Assembly (NCBI GenBank): GCA_003614675.1
Contig: ML002278.1
Location: 1 to 48,882, forward strand
DNA length: 48,882 bases
Source of the DNA: Dimargaris cristalligena
Taxonomy: Eukaryota
Direction: 5' to 3'
Shown: positions 7,148-39,674 of the stretch, in pieces
How positions within the stretch are numbered: position 1 is the first letter of the stretch
How the letters are laid out: every line of letters starts with the position of its first letter
Position numbers and translations under genes: made by a program
The notes under the pieces: model-generated
What the model saw: the letters and a program-made list of their open reading frames with translations, nothing else
Databases searched by the model: none
What the model was told of the DNA's origin: nothing

Positions 7148-8979
7148 ATGTCTAATGTCCCCAAAGGGTGTGGGCAGCTTTGCCGATGCCAGGTCTTCAT
7201 CGATCGGGGTTTTGTGTGATAAACTCGATGATGATGGTAGTCTCCCCCTTTCTCCTTTTCTCCCAGTGCATCCATCCACTCAAAAAAAAAATCCCATGCA
7301 CCTCGGGCGCCAATCCGACACTAAACAATGTACTTTACAGTCTGCATCCAACTATTTTTTTTGGCATGTCTATAGTTAGTACCCTCCTCTATTAAGGTAC
7401 TCTTTCTAATTGCATGGCCTTCGCTTTTCCTGAATTTGTTCTGATGTATTCCCCTTTACTGTTCTATTGATTGTGACTATGGCGCCCCCTCTTTATTCTA
7501 CCCCACCATAGGCCGGCCCAACCATTAGCACGGGAATCCCATCCCACCCATCACGGCTCGATGATCCTCGCCGAGCCAGGCGAGCCTCAGTTTCTGGGCC
7601 CTCCCAACGCCACACCGCCCACCCCATTTTCCCGACTGGTTAACCCCGAATTCCCCGTCAGTGGTCTGGCTAGCGTTCAGCAGCAACTTGATCAGGTCTC
7701 GAGCTACGTACGTCATGGCGATTCCACCAATTCCTATTTTTCGGCCTACCACTCCCAATTAGCCAATATTCCCCAACCGCACCCGCCAGCCATCTCCCAC
7801 GCCAGTGCCTTTACCGCCGATAATCCTGGCACATCACAGCCCAATTCCAGTCCCTACCACCAATCGATGCTTCAGTCACCCTCCCACTCTGTTTCCTTTC
7901 TGGAACAAACATCGCCATCTATGGATGGCTTCCACTCTGGCTCGACCCTTTTGGGGAAGGGGATGGCAGTTTCCACCCTAGCTCATGTTAGTTTCCCAGA
8001 CTAGTAAGTTGTCAACATACCCCTCCCTACTCATTTATTCGCTGACCTGCCAGACCCCATATCTAATTTATTGTTACATATATATATTCCATACTCGTAT
8101 AAAACCGATTATCGGTCGGTGCTTCTTTAACTACCAGTATCAAATTTCGCTCTTATCTGGAGACCAAAATATCACCATCCTGCCGCAAGGATGAGCCCAC
8201 CATTACCTATATTAATCGAGGTAGGTTTACTCTTAATCGTTGGGCATTGAATGGATAATCTGGGTGTAAAGTATGAGGTGCATTGTAGACATGCCCTCCC
8301 AATAAGCCTTGGTGTAATCCATTGGCAATGGTTATCTAAGGCTCCCCCCATAATTTGCTGCTAACCCCCATCCACTAAGACTTGTCCTGACCATCTGCTA
8401 ATTTGTGATGCGGGGCTTTAGGTCAGACCTACATGATGAGCCACAGCCATGAGCCATCCCAGAACATCATTTACAAAACTCAGCTCATTATTGCGTTCCA
8501 CGACGACCACCACCGCCAAGAGGCCGCCAAACTGTGGAGAGTGTGGGCCGAGAAGCAGCCCAACCCGATGAACCCAAAAGCCGTTGAGATCGATGCCAGC
8601 TCGTCCTATAATATCACCATTATCGACGATAGCCAATTTGACCGGGTGACTTTTAACTGGAGTGGCACTGATGTGGCTCGCCTTAGTATCCGCTTTAACT
8701 TTCTCTCCACCGACTTCACAAACCTCAAGGGAATCAAGGGTATTCCTTTACGTTTGGTGGCCTTAAATGTACATAGTGGCGGTTCTGATTCTAATGCAGA
8801 ATGCTATTATACCCTGTTGAAGAGCTTCCGGGATAAGGTTAGTATTGTTATTTGTTATGTCTATGGTTGTCGCGAATTGTTTATATATATCCCAACTGAG
8901 TTGAGTTGGGGTCGGTTAGTTGTCATCACTCGCTCTCTCATGTGGCTCATACTGGCTATATCTAATAACATGTCCTAGC

Positions 8980-9013
<34 letters not shown>

Positions 9014-9775
9014 CCTACTTATCACTTTCAAATTTGCCTATTTTGCTTGCTTTATGGTCGGTCGTATCATGTGCAATAGGGAGCAGAGCGGAAGTATAAA
9101 GACGAAAGTCGCCATTATTCCAAACACTTGGGGAAGGGCAAATCAATGATTGAGGCGGATAATTTAAATGCCAACCTCTACTTTCCAGCCAGTCCTTTGA
9201 CCGCTTTGAAACAGCCCCTACTGGCCTCCCAGATTCCCGCGCCTTACGGCAATCTTCTAGTATCGACTCCCGACAGCAATCATCTTACCAATGTGGTGGC
9301 GGCAAGTGGCAGCAGTGTAAGTGGCACAGGTTCTCTGGAGGTTCTGGCTTCCCAACACATATGGAACTCGGGATCCCGCTCTCCCAATATAGAATATTTA
9401 ATTCGTAAGAGAAAACGGACCACGCCATTGCGGCCGTGTAACTGTCAGATTGCCGACCGTGACCCCACCTATGCCCCAAACCCAATGCACAAATACCAAC
9501 TCTGTATGTTGGTCCAATTCCCGCGTGAAACCTGGTACCGGGCCGTTTACCTAGAACGCTTGACTATGGAACACTTTCAAACGCAATTGATGGCTAAATT
9601 GGATCTTGCGAGTCCAAACGTAAGCATTGAAGGTATTCGACGGCATACCCTCGCTGACCAGGTGGTCCATATGGACGATGAAATGCTCCAGAAAATGGAT
9701 GATGAGATCGATATGGTCCTGTCAATTCAGCCTGGAAGCCGCTCCAGCTGGTTCTTCCTATGTCTTTTTTTTTAG
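7148..9775 (+). CDS. Grainyhead/CP2 (LSF/GRH) family transcription factor
   Basis: Exons: 7148-7167 (tentative), 7512-8003, 8138-8220, 8422-8837 and 9080-9775, all phase-consistent GT-AG. Splicing restores the CP2-domain motifs FRSYLET...EPTITYINRGQTY, FNFLSTDFTNLKGIKGIPLRL and KSFRDKGAERKYKDE. The C-terminal YRAVYLERLT...MDDEML domain is typical of the family. The start could instead be ATG 7561. Confidence 0.92.
8983..9010. repeat. (TA)14 microsatellite in the last intron of the Grainyhead-like gene
   Basis: Read directly from the sequence. Confidence 0.95.
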
Positions 9776-14307: not shown

Positions 14308-15811
14308 TTAACCTTGTATGATTTGATCATAAAGGTGCCGCGTCACGGTGAGCTTCAACCGTTGCTTATCAAACGAAATAAGAAGGGGGTTGAACTGTAG
14401 GAATATAGCACACTCCGAAGGACTGGTAAACGAACCGGCCATTATGAACCTGTCTTCACAGAACTGGGCCTCAGTTCGGTGATAGCCGAAGTTACTAGCA
14501 CAGTGACAAAGGGCCCGACGGCCCAGATGCTTTGTGGAGAAGGCTGTGAGTATATCGACCATTGGTTTCGACCCTATAATATCGAGTTCGATAAGGGCAA
14601 TTAGAGCCAATGTCGAATATCCGGGAAGTCCTAGCTGAGTTGTATACAGTTTATCTAAGAGGTACTGGAGTTGATCAAGTTGGCCAGCATGGACCAGTGC
14701 CACCACCATTAGGGGTATCAGGTAGTACGATACGAGGCTCCGGAAGGTTTGGTCAAACATGGACCGGTCCCCCCAGTATTGGCGAGTCAGATAGGCTAGC
14801 CTGTCGGGAATCAGTGCTCGGACACTAGGATAGTACTGTTCAAAATCCACCCGCTGGTGGAGATGCGTCAGAATGGCTATAACTATGGTCAGTATTGCTT
14901 TAGAATCGGCATTGCCCAGCTGGTGAATCAGGTAAAGTAAAGGCGAAAGTCGCTCTAGGGCCGGGGAAGACACATAATCCGAGTACCACACGCTATGGGA
15001 TATCAAACCGGCTTGCTCCATAGTTCGCAGACTAAGAGTTTGAAGATAGCTGCCCGAGTTTCGACGATCCGAGTCCTTCTCGGAAGACGACCTTGAAGGA
15101 AAGAGTATGTGCATTATCTGGGTCTCACTATTTGTTGTGGTACCCAGCGCATGTTCCAAAAGACTAGAAATGGCGGTAGTAACTTCCGATTCCACCACCT
15201 TTAGGGCTAATTGCGGGCGAAGTTGAATCGGCTGCATTAGGATGAAACGTTGGGACGGGGGTACATCTATGGATTGGCCTAGGCCCCGGCGGATTTTGAC
15301 AAGAGCCTTGTTGAGTTAGATCGTGGTAAACATATACAGGAAGCAGTTAAATCTCGAGCAGTATATGTAGTTTAGTTGTAGATTCCAGTATCCCAACCCA
15401 GTCCCGGGGACTTCAGTATTTACCCCCTCCCCACTCCCCAAATTAAGGAGTATTCTACATCACCATCCAGTCAAACAGGGAAATATTGATAATGGTTGCT
15501 AACCATAAAATAGCAATTAAGTTTTGGCATTGTACACTTACCAAACCGCCATGGAATTTCAAATACTGATCAAACAGTGCGGCTAGGCGGGAATTGACAA
15601 TCCCCAATTGACCAGCGGCCCCCCACTGTAAACGGTCCATAATATGGAAGATAAGCTCAGGCGGTAGTCGCTCAAAATTAGCTAGCGAGGGCATCTCATT
15701 GGAGGCAGGGGGGGCGGCGCGGGGCACATCTAATGAGTGGCCAATCATATCTGCCCCTAGCGCGATTCCTCCGAGAATGATGGCCGCGATGAAGAAATAG
15801 TGAAGTCTCAT
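14308..15811 (-). CDS. Hypothetical secreted protein with N-terminal F-box-like motif (about 422 aa)
   Basis: Exon 1 (15811-15542) encodes a signal-peptide-like MRLHYFFIAAIILGGIALG, then FERLPPELIFHIMDRLQWGAAGQLGIVNSRLAALF, with a GTAAGT donor at 15541. The best phase-0 acceptor is CTAAC-TCAACAAG at 15307, giving exon 2 15306-14308, which contains the 309-aa ORF. The acceptor choice is tentative. Confidence 0.7.
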
Positions 15812-17553
15812 AATATGGGACAAACCAAAATATGAATATCAAGACAAAGACAACAACAGGGATGCAAAGTGCGAATAAGACGACTGTCACCTTTTAGCAT
15901 TCGCCCTATTTAATACGCCGAATTCGCGGCCATTTATATTGCATAGATAGACGACGGGTCCTCCTAATAGAAACATGCCAGCCTATATCAAGCCAGCTCC
16001 CTATTAAGTAACTCGGTAGTAAAAATGTCCCATAATCACCTGCCAATACCTCGGAGTGTAATAGGGATATATAGAAGGCAATCTTGGGTGGTGGCTGCGT
16101 TAATGGTTCCGCCATAAACCTATGCCCCAATCAATGGTTTCACAGAGGTCACAATGATTCCCAATTGTATCTTCCAACCCTATAACTCAACGCCCCCTCG
16201 GTCAAGTGGACTATGTAGCCGGTACTGGAAAGAGGCGATATAATTACAGAGAATCGGGGTTGTATTTTCAGCAAATTTGGATGGACAGGTTCCATTGGTG
16301 ATGCATACGATAAGGTCTCCTGCATTACGGTGCTCATATATTGCCAAATCACCATGACAGGGCACCGCTTATTTCAGGAATAGAGTAACGTATCACAATT
16401 GAGTAAGTTTCCCATCACCAGACAAAGACCTTGGATAGTTAAATGCCAAATCAAAATAATATAAATGTAGGTTAGTTCATAAATATGTTTAGCTGAGAGA
16501 TGCCTCGATCACAGTCCCCAGCGTCGGGAGACTTTTTATATTAATTATAAAGTGACGGGGGAGAGGATTGTGAGCAGAATGACGGGAATTAGATACAGTC
16601 TACTGAGAAGGAACATTGCGCATAATTTTTTAATCGAGGCCATTGATGCTGCGTTCAATAATAAATATGATTTAAGTCAACATCTCGTAGGCTGTCGCTT
16701 TCGATTGGCCCTAATTATGTCAATACGGCGCGAAAAATCGACGACTGGCGATATGTATGTCAAGAAGCCAATTGCAACATATTTATCTCCCTCGGACTCC
16801 CCTCCTCTCGCTCAATGTTTTTGATTCCTATATGTTCCCATCACTCAAGCATTGCCTATTTTGCCCACTTTCTAATGGTATCTGTTAATAGCAGTTTAGT
16901 TACCCCTCCCCCAAGATTGACACTGCCAACCAGTGCTCGGCTACATAAACCTGTAAATCTTTCTACTACCTACTTCTTAGCTATTTAATCGATTATTTGG
17001 TACCCCTTAATTAATTAAATTTTTAGGAGTCGCCAACCATCTATTCTATTCTATTAGACCTCTTCAATAGAGTCATTCATAGCCCTATGTTAAATGCTCT
17101 TAGGTAGATTAGTTCTTGGTGTAGGCTATTCTAGGATTTATTAGGAATTTGACCTATGGTAGTAGGCATGATTGAAAGGGGCAAGTAATCTGCCTAGGCT
17201 GATTATTCTTCTTGAGTAAAGGCGGGGGTGCTTCTTACTCAAACCGACGCAAATATAAATAATTAGTAAAGGTCAGTGGATGCGTGTGGGGTACAGTAGA
17301 GGTGTACATTCATAATATAACTTATAGCAATGGGTGTCGCCCATATTCAAAGGAAATATTAATACAATGGAAATGTAGTTATTTTAGTTTAGAAATAATT
17401 AAGGGTATGGAAAGAGTGGTATAATCGTACAAGAATATATAATAAATAAAAAGTGGCTATTATATAAAAACAAAACTGAATATTCAAAAACACATATGCA
17501 ACTATTTAACGAAGAATGAGGTACCAGCGCTATCCTAAGGGCTGGCCAATACC

Positions 17554-20500
17554 CTACACACTTCCTCGGCGTTTTTTTGAATAATCAACGACTTGCTCGA
17601 CGGCCAAATTAAACCGATCTACAACCACAATCCGGTACTGCTGGGGACTTTCACCCGTCCATCTGTATATTTGAATACATTCGGCCTCTTCGTAGTGGAA
17701 GAAGTAAAAGCTGAGTGCGTATATCAGTACCACTGCCAACTGAAGTAGTACGGCGCGGTAGATGACAATCTCAACATCGGTGTATTCTTGGTAGCGCAGA
17801 ATGATGGCAATGAGCCGTAGAGTGGAAATCATGAGAATACCACACACTATCGTGGCCATCTAGCATAGGGGTAAAGCAGTAGTTGATATAAAAAAGAATA
17901 GTCGAACGTAGTTAACCCCATTAACTATTGATTAAAATGGGATGGGTTTCAAGGAAATACCCCATTTACGGGGAGGAAAAGGCTGGCGTATACAACAGTC
18001 CCTAGTCTAATGCCGACATGCTATGGTTTGTAAAAATAACCTCGCCCATTTATATATTAGGGTTATTTTCAAAAAGAAAGCATCGGTTAAAACCACTTAC
18101 CTTTATCAGTTTACTGTAGGTTTCGGGTGATAGGGCCAGGACATCGCGGGCGCCTAGTAGTAGATGGGCTGGTTGATGGCAGCGTTAAAGTTGGTGCATG
18201 CCAGAGGTATATAGTAATATTAAAAGTTAGGGGATCATGACACCGTAATAATTAATCTGATAATATTTATTCAGCCATTGTGTATAATCAACGAATAGCC
18301 TGGAGGCCATTTGAATACTTTAACCTATCAACAAACATCTCGTGCTATAAATAAAATACAGCTATACATATATAGTTATTGTAGAATTACACTTACTATA
18401 GAGGAATATGATAAATCCTTGTGAAAAAGTAATTATAACTCCCATGATTATCAATAAATGAGAATTGATACGATCTAACGGCTGGTTTTGTGTTACAATT
18501 ACAGCGACTTGCAGTATGCCAACCATACAGGTGGACCCTATTCGTAGAGTGTTAAACCAGAGAAAGACAAACCGTAAACCAGGTATTGGCATAATGTTTT
18601 GAAGTAACAGACCCCTGTTTGAATTCAAGTGTGAAGTGATATAGGAGCGGGAAAATAATGAAACGAGGTGAGAATGATATCGGGCCGGAGAATAGAAGGA
18701 GCTACGTCGTGTACATACGCATAGTCCCGATTAAGAAGTAAATATGTATGTAGCATCATACGAATTGAGCTCATCCGAGGGGATCGATAAGCCCCGTCGT
18801 GCAAGAAACGCTTACATACCATACATAGTAAACTGCTGCATCGGCCAATTCGCAAAATGTTATGGCAATTATGTATAGACACTGAAAAGTGATTGGAATG
18901 CGCACTTTCAAATTTAAGGTCGATAGCACTGACATTCAATAATCCAATCAATTATATAAATATAATATAAATTAGGTGTCGGCTGGCCAATACCAAAATT
19001 ATATGGCGGTCATGTAGGCTATATTGGTGTTACAAAGGTGGGATTATTAGAACTGGGTCGAATTATATATGGCACGACCCATGGGATCAAACTAACTTAC
19101 AGATGACGCATATTATACCCGAAATATAAACCGCAAGTCGGGTCGGCTGTTTTAACTGTTGCCTATGTACAAGACTATATGAAGCGTAGATCCCGTAACA
19201 TGCCAACGGTAAAAACTAAAAAACAACAACAATACAACAATAACAACGCATACCAACCAGCTTAATTAAAGTCAGACTTAGATGTGGTGGAGTTAACGGG
19301 AAATATAACGGTGCTACGTAAGTCAGTGGAAAAAGCAACAACGTTGGGTGTATGAGCCATGAAATAAACAAGAACAATAGTCAGTAATAGACTATTGATG
19401 TCTAAGCCATAGGCAAGAAGGAAGGAGGCCTACCATTAAATACGCCGAAATTTGTTGGATGGTGGAGCCGGGCGATTGATACATGATGTTCCATGGCCCA
19501 GGGTCTAGAAAAATAGGTACGGTAAATTCAGATAAGAAAGCACAAACAGTAAAATTTAAACATAGGGCTGGGGGTATGGACTGATTGATGGGTTACTGGG
19601 CCGAAATAGCTGCATATTGTGGTTAGGCAAACTTTTAGAATACTAAACCTGGACTTAATCCAGGTTCAAATATCGATAACTTCATTCGCCCTATATTTAA
19701 CTGCCGGGGAGGAGCACGGTACCGATGGTATGGCAGTCGGGTAAATAGTCGGGACTGATTGGGGAAAGGGGGTTTTGTGCACCTACCACTAAAGACTTCG
19801 ACTGTGATGTTTTGGAGCAGCTCAACACCTGGTAGCCGGGTGTATTCATCGGCCGAAATGAGACCTAATTCAACTCCCGGTGACCGGTGATCCAGCCAGT
19901 TACCGTACATTTCGCGACTGGGGTCACCGAAATTTTGATTAGCATTTTGGGCAGCCGGGAACAGTACTAGTCGAACACTGGGCCAGCCTAGCTGTTTTAG
20001 TGACGTAGTATACGGTTCAATAAGGGCGAGTACCTGCCGAATAAACCAGCGATGCAATGGTACCGTCCCGACAGGTGGTGTTTGGGGTTAATGATCGACG
20101 GTGTTGAGATCCATCAGTATAATTAAGGAGCCAGTGCCAATACAGAATGCGAATGAGTGACATTGGCTGGGTGGTGGAGGTGAGAGAAGAACCGGGGTAT
20201 CAATGCCGGTATTCGGGGGATCGATCAAATAAGTCAACGATAGCTTGTTGGAGGGATGCAGCTTTAAGTACCTTTCACACGATACCACCAAGTCCACGTC
20301 AGAGCGGACCGGCTGGACCGACAGTATTAGGCAGTTGATGGAAAACGGGAGTGCTAAAACTTACATTCGACTTCTCTCGACAAACGGACCATACGCGGGC
20401 CCAGTCTTCCATGAGCAGGATAACGTGATAGGGTTGCTTGGGGTTTTTAGGCGCCCAGACCCAGTCCGGTGAACGGTGTTGAGGTAGCTGTATCTGGCAT

Positions 20501-20694
20501 TTGTCCGTAAGGGTTACGGGGAGAAGGATCCCCGTGACCTGGAAGGGCGTACCCGAGTCACCGAAAAAGCCGTGGGTGGTTATAGTGGTCGGACCCCCCT
20601 GAACGGTGAGTTGCATTGAGGCCTTTACGTCAGTCGACAGGAGGATGCTCCAAAGTAAGCCAAATACGGCCAAGGCCCAGGGCATGTGGCCCAT
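17554..20694 (-). CDS. Orphan GPCR-like protein: signal peptide, about 200-aa ectodomain, seven predicted TM helices (482 aa)
   Basis: Eight phase-consistent GT-AG exons: 20694-20365, 20033-19787, 19504-19434, 19215-19101, 18928-18820, 18614-18397, 18153-18101 and 17859-17554 (1449 nt in total). N-terminus MGHMPWALAVFGLLWSILLSTDVKAS, a DPGPWN motif just before the first hydrophobic segment, then seven hydrophobic segments counted by eye. Confidence 0.8.
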
Positions 20695-31623: not shown

Positions 31624-34600
31624 ATGACCCAACCCGTGTCCCAGTCCAGTAGGACTCGTATCGCATACACCTTGGCAACCACAACGCCCCCCATGGACCG
31701 GATAGTCTCCCGGGTCGATTCCCCCCGAGAGCTATCTTCACAACAGCTCGCCTCGTCCCATTCTCCCCAGCGGACTACTTCTCTAGACCAAGTCGAGGCC
31801 CCGAACTCGTCAAGCCGTTCCGGCTCTTTATCGGGTCGACCGACTGCCCCCACTTTAGCTTTACCTTCTGTTTCTACCCTAGGTCTTTCAACGACAACTT
31901 CCAACATATCCTACCCAAACCCATTATCCTCGCCTGGCTTACATCTAAGCTCTTTATCCGAAATCACCAGCCCATTTCTATCCGAACCACCTTTACTCCC
32001 GTGCTTCTGGGCACTATTATCATCTGAGAACCTCGATATTGTTTACGTTTCCCCCAATCTTAACCGCAGTTTCCCCATTGATTGCTTCCAGCCTTTCTCG
32101 GTTGGCAGCTCCCTATTCCACTGGATTCACCCCGACGAAGAGCCCCTCGCCCGGGCAGATGTAACCCAATTGTTGACCGACAGTAGTTTCTACGGAACTG
32201 AGATAACGTAAGTCCCCCCGCCTTTATATTATCCAATTACGGCCTGGGCACTCAGGTACGCCTATTTCCCTGCTCCCCGCATTCAAAATGCACCACATTT
32301 TCAAAGAAGAATGGGGTAATCCAGCTCTGGGCTTGATTGCTCGCACCCTTATTTCGCGCCAAAACCCAACCTTGTGCGGGATTCCCCTCGGCTTGTTAGT
32401 TAAATCTGACATTGTTTGTAATTCAGTATAGGTGAAAATATGAGCGACAGGATTCACTTATTGTGGGCTAGGTGCCGATTATCCACTACCATAAAGTAGA
32501 ACGTACCCCTCCTTCCAATTTAGGTGACAGTGGCACATCGATCACCCTTCGTCTATATACCCTGTTGATTGGGGCAATGTGTAATTATATTGCTAACCAG
32601 GCTACGGGGATTTGGACTGGGGGGGGGGGAGGTGCGGTGCTTCCGTCGAGACACTCAGCAACTTTTCCGGGGTGAATAGATCAAACAGGTGGATGCACGC
32701 CACCGGTTCCATAATGGGATCAATTCTTGGCTGCGTCTTAATAGTCAAAGTGTTTGCATTGTTGTCCGCGATCACAAGAACTAACCGCGATGGTTTGCAT
32801 ATTTATCGATTATTTCTATTCGTCACTCTGATTCCATGCATATTTCACTGCTGCCCAATCCTAATACCGGCCCCGAATTAGATGTCGATTACAATTCCGT
32901 GAACCATGTCTTCTCCCCCCCGCTCCTCAGGCTCCCGGGCTATACCGTCGTTCATCAACTTCGCGGCTTCCCGATCTTCCAACTGGAATCAAGCGGTCGT
33001 GGTCAGGCCACAATACTCCGACTGGCCGACCGGCCCGGGCCAGCTCCGTGGATCTAGATTTGGGCCAGGCCTCCTCCGATAACTATCACATGGTCATGCG
33101 AATGGGGCTGTTCACCTTAAAGGATAATTTGGTGCTGGCCTTTATACATCGCCCTTCCCAAAGCACCATCACTGCAGTGCCTCACCTGCCGGAATCAACT
33201 TGCACATGTCGAGACGAAACCATGTCTGAAGCTGACCTGAACGAAATGTTCAGTACCTTTCTCCGACTGCGCGGTATTGCCCCCCTTTCGCTGACTACTA
33301 AGCGGAAGATGCGGGATTCCCTTCACGATTCAACCGGTCCTAAATCGCCTGTCCGCTTGGTCCAGGTGTACGATCGGCGGGATATGCGGCTACTTCACTG
33401 TCTCCCCCCCCTCCGAATCTGACCGGGTGCGTATTCTAGATCTCTTGGATACTCCTATTTCGCCTCGGTTCGTCCACCAACTGTTTGAGTCCGACTGTGT
33501 TGCCGCTCTCCGGCGTGCAGCTAACGGCAGCCAGATGCCTAATTGGGACCCTCTGGCATCCACATCTCTTTCCGTGCGGGCCCGACGACAGGCCAGCGCA
33601 AGTCCGCCCGTTGTTTGGGATGCTGTGGTAACGGGTTTCGGTAGCCTAGTGTTTTTATGCCTACAATCAAGGCAAGTCTTCCCCACTTTAGCCATACATC
33701 CTGAACTAATCTCATTATCAGCGGTTTCCTCTTTCGAGGTACCCCACTCAGCTGATACTTCACCTCACATCAGCAGCATAGACGCACAACTAGCCCGATT
33801 CTCTAACTTTGGCATATTCTCGGAGTTCCGGCGGCATTCCATCGACGTGTCACCATTAGGGCTGCCACCCCCACTACCTCCACCACGCCGCTTCAGTCTC
33901 AACCCCAACCATCTGGTCACTGGCCCGTCTTGGGATATTCACTCGGGCCGCCGGGGTTCACTGGCGGCGGCTGGGGATAGATTCATGCCTAAGAATAGAA
34001 GGGTAGCCGAAATTACCCTTGAAGCGACCCATGGTGGGTATGTTCGACCACCGCCTTCCAAAGAAGTTGGACCCGATACAGCTTCCTTTCGCTATCCTAG
34101 TAGCGCTGGTGGAAGCGGTGATGCCCCAGATGACTACTCCGGGTCGACCCAATATTCCCCCGCTCACGACGCATCCAAATATCATGTAAATGAGAACTAT
34201 GGCAATGGTCCCCGGCGGGCCTCAGCCGGAGTTCTCCCACCGATTGTTGATTTTCCCAAGATACGCCGGTTTTCATTTCCCCTTCACGCCCGGCCTGAGA
34301 ACTCGACCGCGGCCTATATTGAGCCACCCGCGGAAGCCTTCGCCCAGCCCTCGCTTCCCCCGGGCTTCATCTACCCCCATACTAACCAAATTAGTCAAAT
34401 GAGCTCCTCTTCGATGATATCTGGTGGGGAAAGCGGCAGATCACAGTTGGCAACTATTCCTGAAGGTCCATCTGAGTCGTCTGATATTAAGGACACCGCT
34501 GCCACCGAGAGTCGGGTGCTTTCCGCGTTGACCATGCCTCCTTCCGGATCATCCGCCTCGAGGGTAACCCACTTTGTTGGTTTACCGGTCACCCCGACGT

Positions 34601-35568
34601 ACCCAATGTATAGCACCGGCCTAACGAATTCGGTTGGCCTGTCGTCCTCGTCGACGTATTCCTGTTATGCCATGGCCCCGAAATTATCTGTCTCTGCTCT
34701 CGATCCTCGGAGTCCGCGCAATCTTCATCCTTCCGAGTCGGCCCGCCAGTCGGCTATTTTTGTAAACATGCTGCATCCCCCCAAGCGGGTCTGCCATGAC
34801 TATACGGGAACATCCTCTGGTCTAGGCCAACAGTTGATAGCGACTCCGCCAAAGAAGTGTGAGAGTTGTCAAACTGAAACCAGCCCCGAATGGCGACGGG
34901 GTCCCAGTGGTCACAAGACCCTCTGCAATGCCTGTGGTCTGCGCTACTCGCGTTCCCTGACCAGGGCCTCAAAGTCTCAGAACCGGCGCCTGGCTACGGG
35001 AGATAAAACCACGGCAGTTGCTGCTCGACCCCTTTTGCCCGGCAATGGTCTCCCCACGCCGCCAGCGCTTTCCCCCCACCACCCTCATCCACATTCCCAC
35101 CATCCGTATGGCAGCGGAACTGTATCTCCAATGGGTTCCCGTGCTAATATGTCTAATACCCCCTATATGACTGCATCCAGTCCGACTTCCCCGCATTATT
35201 TTACCAGCCCCGGTCACACCTCTGTATCACCATTATCCCCCATGCATCCAGCCGGCTCTACTTCCACTACACCTATTAATAATCCAGGGATTTCGAGTCG
35301 CCCATCCTCTGAACTGCCCCCGCCGGTGCAGTCCATGTCTAAGCAGGGATCAGCGACTCATACCCATGATCTCTACTCTCTACATCGCCCCCAAGATCAT
35401 ACTTACCATTACTCCCATCCTCAATCGCATCGGCACCCTCGATCATATCAGGGCGATGACTGCCAGGAGTTGATTGCTTATCCGACCCAAACCGGCCGGC
35501 CTCGTTCCCCCCAGCCACCGCATTCCACGCCCTTGACCTCGTCAAACTCTTACCGACCGGTTCCCTGA
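31624..35568 (+). CDS. GATA-type zinc-finger transcription factor with N-terminal PAS-like domain(s); frameshift at the C8 run 33404-33411
   Basis: Exon 1 (31624-32207, GTAAGT donor) encodes PAS-like CFWALLSSENLDIVYVSPNL...GSSLFHWIHPDEEPLARADV. One or more small exons in 32208-32930 are unresolved. An exon from 32931 continues through ORF 33048 and, after a +1 shift, ORF 33427-35568. That ORF contains CESCQTETSPEWRRGPSGHKTLCNACGLRY (C-X2-C-X18-C-X2-C, starting at 34858). Confidence 0.88.
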
Positions 35569-36611: not shown

Positions 36612-38315
36612 TTACAGAGAATTGGAGCGATCCCGGTTGGAGTTATCCGTGAGCGACTGGCGTTCTTCAGCGGAGTTAATTTCATCCACAAACCGGTCCC
36701 ATTCGGCATCTTCCTGGACCTTCTTGACGAATTGCAGACGGAGGCGATCGTCCTTGACCAGCCGAATGAGCTGACCGAAGATACGGATCCGGAAGATTTG
36801 GCCTTCGACGGGGGGCAACAGACGGTCGCGCAGGGTGGTACGCACGAAGATGGAGAAGCACCAGCCGAGAATGGTGATTGCCAAAATCCACCAGAAGTTG
36901 ATGACGTAGACGTTGTAGTCCTTGGTGGAGCGACCCCCGCTGATGAGGTTGTTGAAGATACCCGTGAAGGCTAGACCACCGGCGACACCGGCGATGGACC
37001 AAGCGGTCAGAATAATCCCGTGACAGGCCCCAATGTTCTTGGGGCCGTACATGTCGGTTAAAAAGGCGGGGATAATCCCGAACCCGGCGCCGTAGCAGGA
37101 GGAGATGATCCACATCATGGCAATGAACGCCCCGTACGACCCCTCTTCCAAAATGAGCGTAACGACGCCAATGACAATACACTGGACGGTGAGGGTGAAG
37201 ACGAGACAGGTTTTCCGGCCGACTTTATCGGAGATGATGGAAAAGAGGAGGCGGCCGGCTAAATTGAACCCCCCGTTGGCGGACACAATGGCGGAAGCGG
37301 TGGTGGTGGACTTGCCGAAGATATCAACGATCATGGTGGAGAGGCGGGAAATCACGACCAAACCGAACACCGAGTTACCAACGAAGACCAGGTACAGCAG
37401 TCGGAAATCACGGTCCAGGAGGGATTCGACGAGGGTCATCTTAATGTTGGGTTGCTTGCGGGTCGGGGCGGGCACATAGGCTTCGTCTACTTTCTCGACC
37501 TCTCCGTTTTCCACGTCGACTTCGGTGGTGGATACCCGCTCACGGTAGGCGTCCATGCCGTTGATGGTGTAGTTGGGCGGGGGCACACGGAGCAGCCAAC
37601 CGCAGGGCATCATGATACAGAAATAAATGCAGCCCATGATGATGAACGTCTTGGGCACCCCCAGACTCTTGATGAGCGGCACGGGGATCTGGGCAAACGC
37701 AATGGAACCGGCGCCAAACCCACAGACGGCGAACCCAGCGGCCATACCCCGGTGATCCGGGAACCATTTCTGCAGAGCCGAGACGGGCGAGATGTAACAA
37801 AATCCTAGACCGTAACCGCCGATGATACCGTAACCAATGTACAGGAGCCACATTTGCTTCGTGTGGACCGCTAAGGCTGAGAGTAAATGGCCTATGAAGA
37901 AACAGCACGAACCGATCAAACAACCGAACCGGGGGCCCCGGCGTTCCAAGACGGGTCCCATGGCGGCGGCCGAAAAGCCCAGCAAACCCACGGCAAGATA
38001 AAAGGTGATGGGGGCGTCGTTGGCATTTTCGTTGCCCGAAATGGCCTTGTCAATGGGCTTGTTGTAGATACTCCAGGCGTAGAGGGAACCACAGCAAAAT
38101 TGAATCAGCACAGCCACGGGAAACAAAATCCACCGGTTGAAGGGAATATTACCAATGAGAAAGCGTTCCCGATCAATTTGGGCCTCGGTGCGCTGGTAGG
38201 GTTGGTCACGCCAGTGGTGGTAAAAGGCACGCTTAAAAATGTTGCCCTTCTTGACCCTCGGGTCGGTTGAGGACTGATCCTCGGTGTGATACGCCTCAGC
38301 TTTCGTATCGGCCAT
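36612..38315 (-). CDS. MFS transporter, oxalate:formate antiporter (OFA)-like family, 567 aa, intronless
   Basis: Uninterrupted ORF with about 12 hydrophobic segments. Motifs RWILFPVAVLIQFCCGSLYAWS, GPVLERRGPR (motif A), KWFPDHRGMAAGFAVCGFGAGS, FNLAGRLLFSIISDKVGRK and YGAGFGIIPAFLTDMYGPKNIGACHGIILTAWS are characteristic of OFA/YhjX-type carriers. Confidence 0.95.
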   Translation of the reverse strand: MADTKAEAYHTEDQSSTDPRVKKGNIFKRAFYHHWRDQPYQRTEAQIDRERFLIGNIPFNRWILFPVAVLIQFCCGSLYAWSIYNKPIDKAISGNENANDAPITFYLAVGLLGFSAAAMGPVLERRGPRFGCLIGSCCFFIGHLLSALAVHTKQMWLLYIGYGIIGGYGLGFCYISPVSALQKWFPDHRGMAAGFAVCGFGAGSIAFAQIPVPLIKSLGVPKTFIIMGCIYFCIMMPCGWLLRVPPPNYTINGMDAYRERVSTTEVDVENGEVEKVDEAYVPAPTRKQPNIKMTLVESLLDRDFRLLYLVFVGNSVFGLVVISRLSTMIVDIFGKSTTTASAIVSANGGFNLAGRLLFSIISDKVGRKTCLVFTLTVQCIVIGVVTLILEEGSYGAFIAMMWIISSCYGAGFGIIPAFLTDMYGPKNIGACHGIILTAWSIAGVAGGLAFTGIFNNLISGGRSTKDYNVYVINFWWILAITILGWCFSIFVRTTLRDRLLPPVEGQIFRIRIFGQLIRLVKDDRLRLQFVKKVQEDAEWDRFVDEINSAEERQSLTDNSNRDRSNSL

Positions 38316-39674
38316 GATTAAAGCGATTAGAAAGCAAGATAATACAGACAGCTAATACTGCTACTAATAGTAATGATAATAATATAAAAGGCAGGGGTAC
38401 GGAGTGGGAAAATACACGCACGAAGTGAATGGAAAGACGAAGGGGGACACACTAAAAAAGGTCCAATGGAAAAGTTGGTCGGGTAAGCCGGGGCTTATAT
38501 AAAAACTTCCTATTTAGGCGAAAACAATGAACCGAAATAGAGTGCGCTGCAGCCCAGAACACGAGGAATGGGGAGGAAGTTGAACAAACCAGAGCGGAAA
38601 GGAAAAGAAAACGAAAGGGGGGTAAGGCTAAATCAGCGATGTTCAGGGGCGCAGATGGCAAATCGAGTGTTTTCACAGGAAATCGTCCAAGTGTCGGTCA
38701 CTAAAATAGCACATCAAAATAGGACAGAAAGGTGATGGGGGAGTATGGATATATATGGTGGAGTAAGGGGTTAGTCGACTGAGAATCGGTGGTAAGTGAT
38801 ACACGACGGCTATAACTGCCAGTGGATGACTGGGCCGAGTGAAGGTGGAACATGGGAGGGGGTGTGTGTATATAGGAAGGAGAAGTATGGGTGAATGGAG
38901 TGGAACGGTACCAATGAGGTAATAAAGGGGGGGGGAGGGCGGCAATTAAGGGAGGTGGGTGCCGGTTGCATAGATCAATATAAATATAGGTTTTATACGG
39001 CACAGCATCCGGTGCAAGGGAGAAAGGGAGGGAGAGGGCTTCCCCCGCAAATAAAGTGAATTATACAGCCCCGTCGAATAACAATAAAAAGCAAGGATGA
39101 TTGTTACGCTGGTGGGCGTACAGGGCGCATGAGCCAGGTGCGTATGTGGATCATAAGCACATTATGAGATTCACCGCAATCACCTCAGTTTAAATGGAAC
39201 CCGAAGGGGGAGAGAGAGGAAAGGGGAGAGGGAAATCTGGCAGTGGTTTGACAGGTAGGGGAAGGGGCGAATGGATGGAACAATAACCGAAGGGCCTGTC
39301 AAACCAGATTAGACAGCTGGCCAAAGGGGAAACGGCACGCGGGCCGGGGCATTAAAAACGGGTACAAAAAGGCTTACTTTCATACACATACACATACGCG
39401 TACATAAACAAAAATACTCGCCCAGCTGTACTGGTAAATTTTATACCAGGAGGTACAGTATCCCAGTGTGATGAAGAGAGAGAAATTCACGTAAAAATTA
39501 AGCAACACCTATTAAAGAGAGAGGGGGATGGGGAAAGCGATGATGCTAATAGCGTGGGGGGGGGTGAGGCTTACCTTTATATTGGCTGATTCTGCGGTTT
39601 GACTGGTGTGGTTGGAGTGTGGAATCGGGTGAGATGTTGGCGGAAGTGAAGGCGCGGTATTAAGCGGAGTATCA

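Follow-up and report, generated by a model that had tools for sequence, protein, structure and literature searches.

A species-restricted gene of Dimargaris cristalligena with an F-box-like motif and a signal-peptide-like N-terminus at an unverified start codon

Gene structure and public annotations

We analysed a gene on the minus strand (15811..14308) of a 48,882-nucleotide (nt) stretch of DNA, hereafter the window, from contig ML002278.1 of Dimargaris cristalligena. An earlier note, made from the sequence alone, had proposed that this gene encodes a secreted F-box protein able to hijack the Skp1–Cul1–F-box (SCF) ubiquitin ligase of a host, and had guessed at a parasitic early-diverging fungus as its source. 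The guess was correct, as the databases name D. cristalligena, which the available portions of two genome papers describe as a biotrophic mycoparasite of the Kickxellomycotina (PMC6784888, PMC9866270). The sequence features that it had described, with their coordinates and a phase-0 junction at 15541/15307, are likewise all present on the minus strand. Thus its observations are confirmed, and its interpretation is partly supported. The features of the locus are as follows (aa, amino acids; TM, transmembrane; JGI, Joint Genome Institute).

15542..15811, minus strand: exon 1 (P0001), 90 aa, with a signal-peptide-like N-terminus, a Pro/Ala/Ser linker and an F-box-like motif; the same 90 residues are found in the NCBI model (P0003)
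15755..15811, minus strand: signal-peptide-like segment, residues 1-19, with an MRLH n-region, a 15-residue hydrophobic core and A-L-G before the putative cleavage point
15746..15748, minus strand: second in-frame ATG (Met22), an alternative start; a protein begun here would be 401 aa long and lack the hydrophobic segment
15575..15676, minus strand: F-box-like motif, residues 46-79, FERLPPELIFHIMDRL...LGIVNSRLAAL; its PF12937 and PF00646 matches are below the curated cut-offs
15307..15541, minus strand: phase-0 intron of 235 nt with a GTAAGT donor, a CTAAC branch-like site and an AG acceptor, present in both public gene models
14311..15306, minus strand: exon 2 (P0002), 332 aa, an orphan Leu-rich C-terminal domain predicted to be all-helical
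14410..14508, minus strand: Cys-containing segment (Cys357, 359, 373 and 389 of the 422-aa protein), read from the sequence
14308..14310, minus strand: stop codon TAA, read from the sequence
15729..15730, minus strand: boundary of the alternative JGI acceptor; exon 5 of a 651-aa fusion model runs from 15729, after ...CATTAG
17679..20694, minus strand: upstream neighbour gene (P0005, 261 aa in one annotation), an orphan signal-peptide/two-TM protein

The ATG at 15811-15809 begins exon 1 and gives the N-terminus MRLHYFFIAAIILGGIALG/ADMIG. The 90 codons of this exon translate as MRLHYFFIAAIILGGIALGADMIGHSLDVPRAAPPASNEMPSLANFERLPPELIFHIMDRLQWGAAGQLGIVNSRLAALFDQYLKFHGGL and close with HGGL, directly followed by the GTAAGT donor at 15542/15541; at the other end of the intron, CTAAC lies 10-14 nt ahead of the AG at 15307. 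The two exons are read in the same phase, giving a protein of 422 aa. Exon 2 is 15.1% Leu and contains four Cys and zero N-x-S/T sites. It lies in a 335-codon stop-free frame with coding-like codon usage, as judged against a training set of four Pfam-confirmed open reading frames (ORFs) of the window (a major facilitator superfamily (MFS) transporter, a GATA factor and two CP2/grainyhead exons). With this set, the codon log-likelihood of exon 2 was +37.0 in frame, compared with -78.3 and -105.7 in the other two frames. Exon 1 scored +16.5 from Met22 to its end, and the 21 codons preceding Met22 were neutral, with a slight lean to the annotated frame (-0.1, against -4.5 and -5.3). The locus is a genuine two-exon protein-coding gene.

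Two annotation pipelines agree on the junction between the exons. With exon 2 as the query, a word-indexed search covering 5.8 billion clustered proteins returned a single cluster, that of a 422-aa D. cristalligena protein. This NCBI model, from a second assembly of the species, has exactly the same exon structure, and its product is identical to the two joined exons but for one change in 422 residues, Ser to Ile at residue 195. The contig itself carries the JGI model RKP39335.1 (P0004), a 651-aa protein with the UniRef name 'F-box domain-containing protein', which also joins exon 1 to exon 2. It starts at 20694, takes in four exons of the upstream signal-peptide/two-TM protein and then jumps 1949 nt from a GTATTC donor at 17678 to 15730/15729. 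The F-box exon of the JGI model consequently begins VPRAAPP, and the residues MRLHYFF...GHSLD are intronic there. The other annotation divides the locus into a 261-aa upstream protein and the 422-aa protein, and its 261-aa model takes the same weak GTATTC donor to a 14-nt terminal exon at 17125. Two public annotations of one species therefore yield three different proteins at this locus: one of 422 aa, one of 651 aa and a separate 261-aa neighbour.

Neither gene model appears to rest on RNA. The stem "transcriptom" has 0 occurrences in the main text of the JGI genome paper (PMC6784888). In the available part of a paper on low-coverage genomes, which is presumably the source of the second assembly, gene models are described as an ab initio consensus (PMC9866270).

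An F-box-like motif ahead of an orphan, predicted helical domain

The sole Pfam match of exon 1 was to PF12937 (F-box-like), at E 0.11 and 12.8 bits (cut-off 24.3), with residues 46-79 (15676..15575) aligned to positions 1-34 of the 47-position profile. A 71-residue piece running across the junction matched PF12937 at E 0.061 (13.5 bits) and PF00646 at E 0.26 (11.7 bits; cut-off 20.5). The F-box of the earlier note therefore stands in so far as the only Pfam matches are to F-box families and the UniRef name agrees, and falls short in that all of the matches are below their cut-offs (E 0.061-0.26). Residues 49-79 carry the LPxE signature and the spaced hydrophobic positions of helices H1-H2 (LPPELIFHIMDRL ... 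LGIVNSRLAAL). By eye, they match what we take to be the F-box consensus, namely L-P-x-E-L-I-x-x-I-M-x-x-L followed by L-x-I-V-x-x-R-L-x-x-L.

A phmmer search of PDB sequences with exon 1 gave 0 matches at E up to 10. A single-sequence AlphaFold2 (AF2) model of a 53-aa F-box piece reached a predicted local distance difference test (pLDDT) score of 70, with one short and two long helices; when it was compared with the PDB by Foldseek, the best E was 3.1 and none of the rows carried an F-box description. F-boxes have been solved structurally in complex with Skp1, so this null result is uninformative. Taken together, the Pfam matches, the UniRef name and the LPxE-hydrophobic pattern make the F-box assignment quite probable, although it is not formally demonstrated.

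Exon 2 matched zero Pfam families at E up to 10. For the whole protein, single-sequence AF2 modelling (pLDDT 42.9, predicted template modelling (TM) score 0.35) gave an all-helix structure, with ~17 helices predicted at low confidence, including a hydrophobic N-terminal helix at residues 2-24. Such a stack resembles the alpha-solenoid (ARM/HEAT/ankyrin-like) domains, but all of the matches to these are below the noise guides: Foldseek of the whole-protein model gave importin-alpha/ARM rows only (best E 0.059, TM score ~0.2), and a VIA wide search gave generic HEAT-type solenoids with Z <=8.9, under the guide of ~13 for helical repeats. We therefore rejected any specific fold assignment. An ankyrin reading came from a by-eye impression and from two Atlas leads, ankyrin clusters at 0.79 and 0.76, which are below the guide of 0.9. 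It is unsupported by Pfam and by a test for internal repeats, in which none rose above shuffled sequences (best diagonal 25.0; shuffle mean 25.5, maximum 38), and we keep it as a lead only. The Atlas recognition value of the protein was 2036; a value of 2300 is reached by 91 of 100 known-family proteins.

The census of paralogues covered protein databases and the window. A phmmer search with the 422-aa protein against 1.84 billion representative proteins returned only the protein itself, as did a word search with residues 1-90 against the 5.8 billion clustered proteins, and tblastn found no second copy in the window. By these searches, the protein appears to be a singleton orphan restricted to its species. 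The earlier note had further suggested an effector family, and shuffling of the exon that carries the signal peptide and F-box. Both proposals are without support, since the databases contain only self matches, with nothing else sharing exon 1, and the window holds no second copy.

The choice of start codon and a proposed intracellular role

We judged the signal peptide by inspection, using the simple n/h/c and (-3,-1) rules together with a crude rule of our own. The segment has the features of a Sec-type signal peptide: an n-region made positive by Arg2, an h-region (Y5-G19) whose 15 residues fall within the usual 7-15 and have a mean Kyte-Doolittle value of 2.27, and small residues at -3 (Ala17) and -1 (Gly19) of the putative cleavage point. 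It also provides the most hydrophobic 19-residue windows of the protein (2.09 at residue 6). In these respects the earlier note was borne out; on the other side, the codons concerned are intronic in the JGI model and Met22 offers an alternative start. Of the 281 open frames in the window that begin with ATG and span 40 codons or more, 5 (1.8%) passed our crude rule, so that a segment of this kind is uncommon but not rare.

The most likely explanation, to which we give about an even chance, is that the gene encodes a lineage-specific, fast-evolving intracellular SCF substrate receptor, with a signal-peptide-like N-terminus that is modelled but unverified. The N-terminal F-box (residues ~46-90) would dock on the fungus's own Skp1 and hence on Cul1-Rbx1, and the all-helical C-terminal domain of ~330 residues would recruit a substrate for ubiquitination. 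We infer that the first 19-21 residues are a by-product of the unverified start codon: either Met22 is used, or the extension does not act as a signal for the endoplasmic reticulum (ER).

Several results are consistent with this intracellular role. The coding scores are positive in frame for exon 2 (+37.0) and from Met22 (+16.5), and only -0.1 for the codons before Met22. The splice signals are canonical, and the exon-intron structure is common to both public models. The mature part of the protein has only 4 Cys and no N-glycosylation sequon. Its only Pfam matches, though sub-threshold, are to two F-box families, and UniRef names the JGI protein accordingly. Signal-peptide-like starts arise by chance in ~2% of open ATG frames (5/281), and it is over exactly the N-terminus that the two ab initio annotations are at odds. 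Finally, the databases and the window contain no paralogue or family of the kind expected of expanded effector repertoires. F-box proteins usually have the F-box near the N-terminus, followed by an interaction domain, and the layout here, with a helical domain after the motif, agrees with this. Indeed, the gene resembles endogenous F-box proteins in having an N-terminal motif of the LPxE type, which forms three helices in the family, ahead of a larger domain. It differs from them in its sub-threshold scores, in a C-terminal domain that is not WD40, leucine-rich repeat (LRR), Kelch or any other Pfam family, in being an orphan outside the species and in the hydrophobic, signal-peptide-like character of its modelled N-terminus.

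A number of observations weigh against an intracellular receptor. The F-box match is under every curated Pfam threshold, and Pfam reported nothing for the full 422-aa protein. No other in-frame ATG lies between the preceding stop and the ATG at 15811, and position -3 of this ATG is A; scanning ribosomes should therefore take it if it is present in the mRNA. The 1.7 kb upstream (17560 to 15880) has stops in every frame and zero coding-like windows, and a TATAAA lies at 15938-15933, ~125 nt before this ATG, so that transcription may plausibly begin upstream of 15811. Among the 21 codons before Met22, the annotated frame is the best of three, and G is the commonest first-position base (8/21). The hydrophobic core is flanked by positive charge before it (Arg2) and by acidic residues after it (Asp21, Asp27). 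By the positive-inside rule, a positive N-flank and an acidic C-flank favour an N-in/C-out orientation with a lumenal C-terminus. Given also the short, 15-residue core, the F-box would therefore lie in the ER lumen and not in the cytosol.

The secretion logic of the earlier note thus holds if the N-terminus encoded from 15811 is made, whereas a start at Met22 would yield an ordinary cytosolic F-box protein. Which of the two is chosen depends on the transcription start site. We consider it rather doubtful, though far from negligible, that the protein enters the secretory pathway. Two routes lead to what we observe, each of them rare: an F-box gene may gain a signal-peptide-like upstream ATG within 21 codons, or an F-box protein may be truly secreted. 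We estimate that their rates are of a similar order.

A 30-codon upstream ORF (MLKGDSRLIRTLHPCCCLCLDIHILVCPIL) occupies 15808-15900 on the minus strand, and its TGA overlaps the ATG at 15811 (ATGA). If transcription begins upstream of 15900, this ORF could modulate the use of the first ATG relative to Met22.

Alternative explanations and neighbouring genes

The best placed of the alternatives, although unlikely, is that the gene encodes a secreted effector. Translation would start at 15811, the signal peptide would be cleaved, and the protein would be secreted from haustoria, taken up by the Mucorales host and bound by host Skp1, redirecting the SCF ligase to a target chosen by the C-terminal domain. 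The N-terminus does follow the n/h/c and (-3,-1) rules, with a core too short for a typical membrane span, and only 1.8% of the open ATG frames in the window pass the crude rule. One ab initio pipeline picked the start at 15811, which is preceded by a 1.7-kb non-coding spacer and by a TATAAA ~125 nt away. The organism lives as a biotrophic mycoparasite, and orphan, fast-evolving status is common among effectors. However, this reading rests on a single unverified ATG, at 15811, which the JGI model contradicts and for which Met22 is available as an alternative. The signal-peptide codons score neutral, the F-box matches are sub-threshold, and in the databases and window searched we found neither a paralogue nor anything else sharing the signal-peptide/F-box exon. 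The gene is not yet evidence of an effector.

Since Skp1 is highly conserved among fungi, an endogenous SCF adaptor would need only an added signal peptide to become an effector of one fungus against another. A haustorial mycoparasite that sent one of its own fast-evolving F-box receptors into another fungus, and so had a host protein marked for degradation, would provide the first case of this kind in fungi, and the first fungus-on-fungus one of which we are aware; we consider this scenario a shade less likely again than secretion of an effector as such.

Translocated F-box effectors include VirF of Agrobacterium and AnkB of Legionella. Together with the RipG/GALA proteins of Ralstonia, they share with the effector reading the concept of a parasite F-box inserted into host Skp1, with a repeat domain picking the target. 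They differ in using type III or type IV secretion in place of an ER signal peptide and in their repeats (LRRs in GALA, ankyrin repeats in AnkB), and the search of 1.84 billion representatives with phmmer revealed no sequence relationship between these bacterial effectors and the 422-aa protein.

Both bacteria and a gall midge provide documented cases of ubiquitin-system mimicry in the available text of one study, in which Ralstonia RipG7 binds Arabidopsis SKP1-like proteins and the SSGP-71 effectors of the Hessian fly, composed of a signal peptide, an F-box and LRRs, interact with wheat Skp proteins (PMC4617103). SSGP-71 is thus a eukaryotic precedent for a signal peptide, F-box and repeat domain acting together as a mimic of the host SCF. 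SSGP-71, however, has expanded into a very large family, its LRRs are recognisable and its Skp interaction has been shown experimentally, whereas the gene described here stands alone, has a helical domain that fits no class and is known from sequence only. For fungi, our literature search gave only an in-silico candidate for mimicry of this kind: according to the portion of the report available, NLS_30765 of Rhizophagus clarus is a predicted secreted effector with an F-box-like domain (PF12937, 2.8e-07) and no other homology (PMC4746824). It too is from an early-diverging fungus and unvalidated, but that fungus is a plant symbiont and the PF12937 match is significant; the phmmer search of the 1.84 billion representatives found no similarity between it and the 422-aa protein. 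Within the text that our literature searches covered, they turned up no validated secreted F-box effector of a fungus, nor any paper pairing 'Dimargaris cristalligena' with 'F-box'. Even if the gene does encode an effector, the concept itself has precedents in SSGP-71 and RipG7. If the first ATG is used, the locus is a concrete candidate for mimicry of the ubiquitin system by one fungus in another, and one that could readily be tested. If it is unused, the locus warns that one start codon predicted ab initio is enough to produce an apparent 'secreted F-box effector'.

It is also improbable, and somewhat more so, that the protein is an orphan helical protein of the secretory route, whether secreted or resident in the ER or vacuole, whose F-box-like stretch, a helical motif that is degenerate or due to chance, never comes into contact with Skp1. 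The signal-peptide-like N-terminus would fit such a protein, as would F-box matches that are below the cut-offs and disappear on the full-length protein, and the failure of phmmer to match any PDB sequence at E up to 10. Against this, both of the only Pfam matches are to F-box families, the alignment begins at profile position 1 on the LPxE signature, and UniRef uses the name 'F-box domain-containing protein'. The doubts over the start codon apply here just as they do to a secreted effector.

A third alternative accepts the JGI fusion. The 651-aa product would begin with its own signal peptide and a luminal domain and pass through two membrane spans before reaching the F-box and helical domain, and the segment encoded from 15811 would lie inside a 1949-nt intron. 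RKP39335.1 is indeed annotated in this way on the same contig, and a 1633-nt intron (19786..18154) in the same gene in both annotations indicates that long introns are modelled in this genome. The GTATTC donor, however, departs from the other four modelled donors, which are GTAAGT (3) or GTAGGT (1), and is sent to a 14-nt terminal exon by the other annotation. By reading, we found no CTRAY branch-like site before the CATTAG acceptor. Furthermore, the upstream exon can be read on without any intron, since its frame continues, open and coding-like, through another 41 codons until a stop at 17556-17554, and the 1.7-kb spacer is AT-rich and stop-filled, like intergenic DNA. The odd donor, the open upstream frame and the non-coding spacer lead us to judge the fusion quite unlikely.

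The upstream neighbour itself (17679-20694, minus strand) has a signal-peptide-like start of its own (MGHMPWALAVFGLLWSILLSTDVKA), a domain of ~170 aa and two hydrophobic spans. Its 261-aa product had no homologues in our search and only noise in Pfam. Since read-through of the 17678 donor gives the 41 coding-like codons (17554-17678), the true C-terminus of this gene may be unspliced.

We give as little credence to an uncleaved N-terminal membrane anchor as to the fusion. Such an anchor would tether the protein to the surface of an organelle with the F-box facing the cytosol, an arrangement described for the FBXW7-beta isoform and for mitochondrion-associated F-box proteins of yeast. It would reconcile the hydrophobic segment with cytosolic Skp1, and is consistent with the helix predicted at residues 2-24 and with the hydrophobicity maximum of the protein (2.09 at residue 6). 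The core, however, is only ~15 residues long with Gly-Gly in its middle, and the charges around it (Arg2 ahead, Asp21 and Asp27 behind) favour an N-in/C-out orientation, with the F-box on the wrong side.

Least probable of all, and only barely credible, is a decaying or spurious open frame retained only by ab initio predictors: homologues were found in no other organism in the databases searched, the predicted fold is of low confidence (pLDDT 42.9) and the Atlas value of 2036 is under 2300, but the 335-codon open frame has an in-frame coding bias, perfect splice signals unite two in-phase coding exons, and the frame is intact in the second assembly with 1 substitution in 422 residues.

No tRNA genes were found in the window. 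Two adjacent ORFs on the plus strand (8409-9775) carry a CP2 domain (E 1.3e-22) and a GRHL1-like C-terminal domain (E 1e-10), and together resemble a transcription factor of the grainyhead/CP2 type interrupted by an intron. A 757-codon ORF at 33295-35568 on the plus strand contains a GATA zinc finger (E 2.7e-13), and a 579-codon ORF at 36612-38351 on the minus strand matches MFS transporters (E 7.7e-29).

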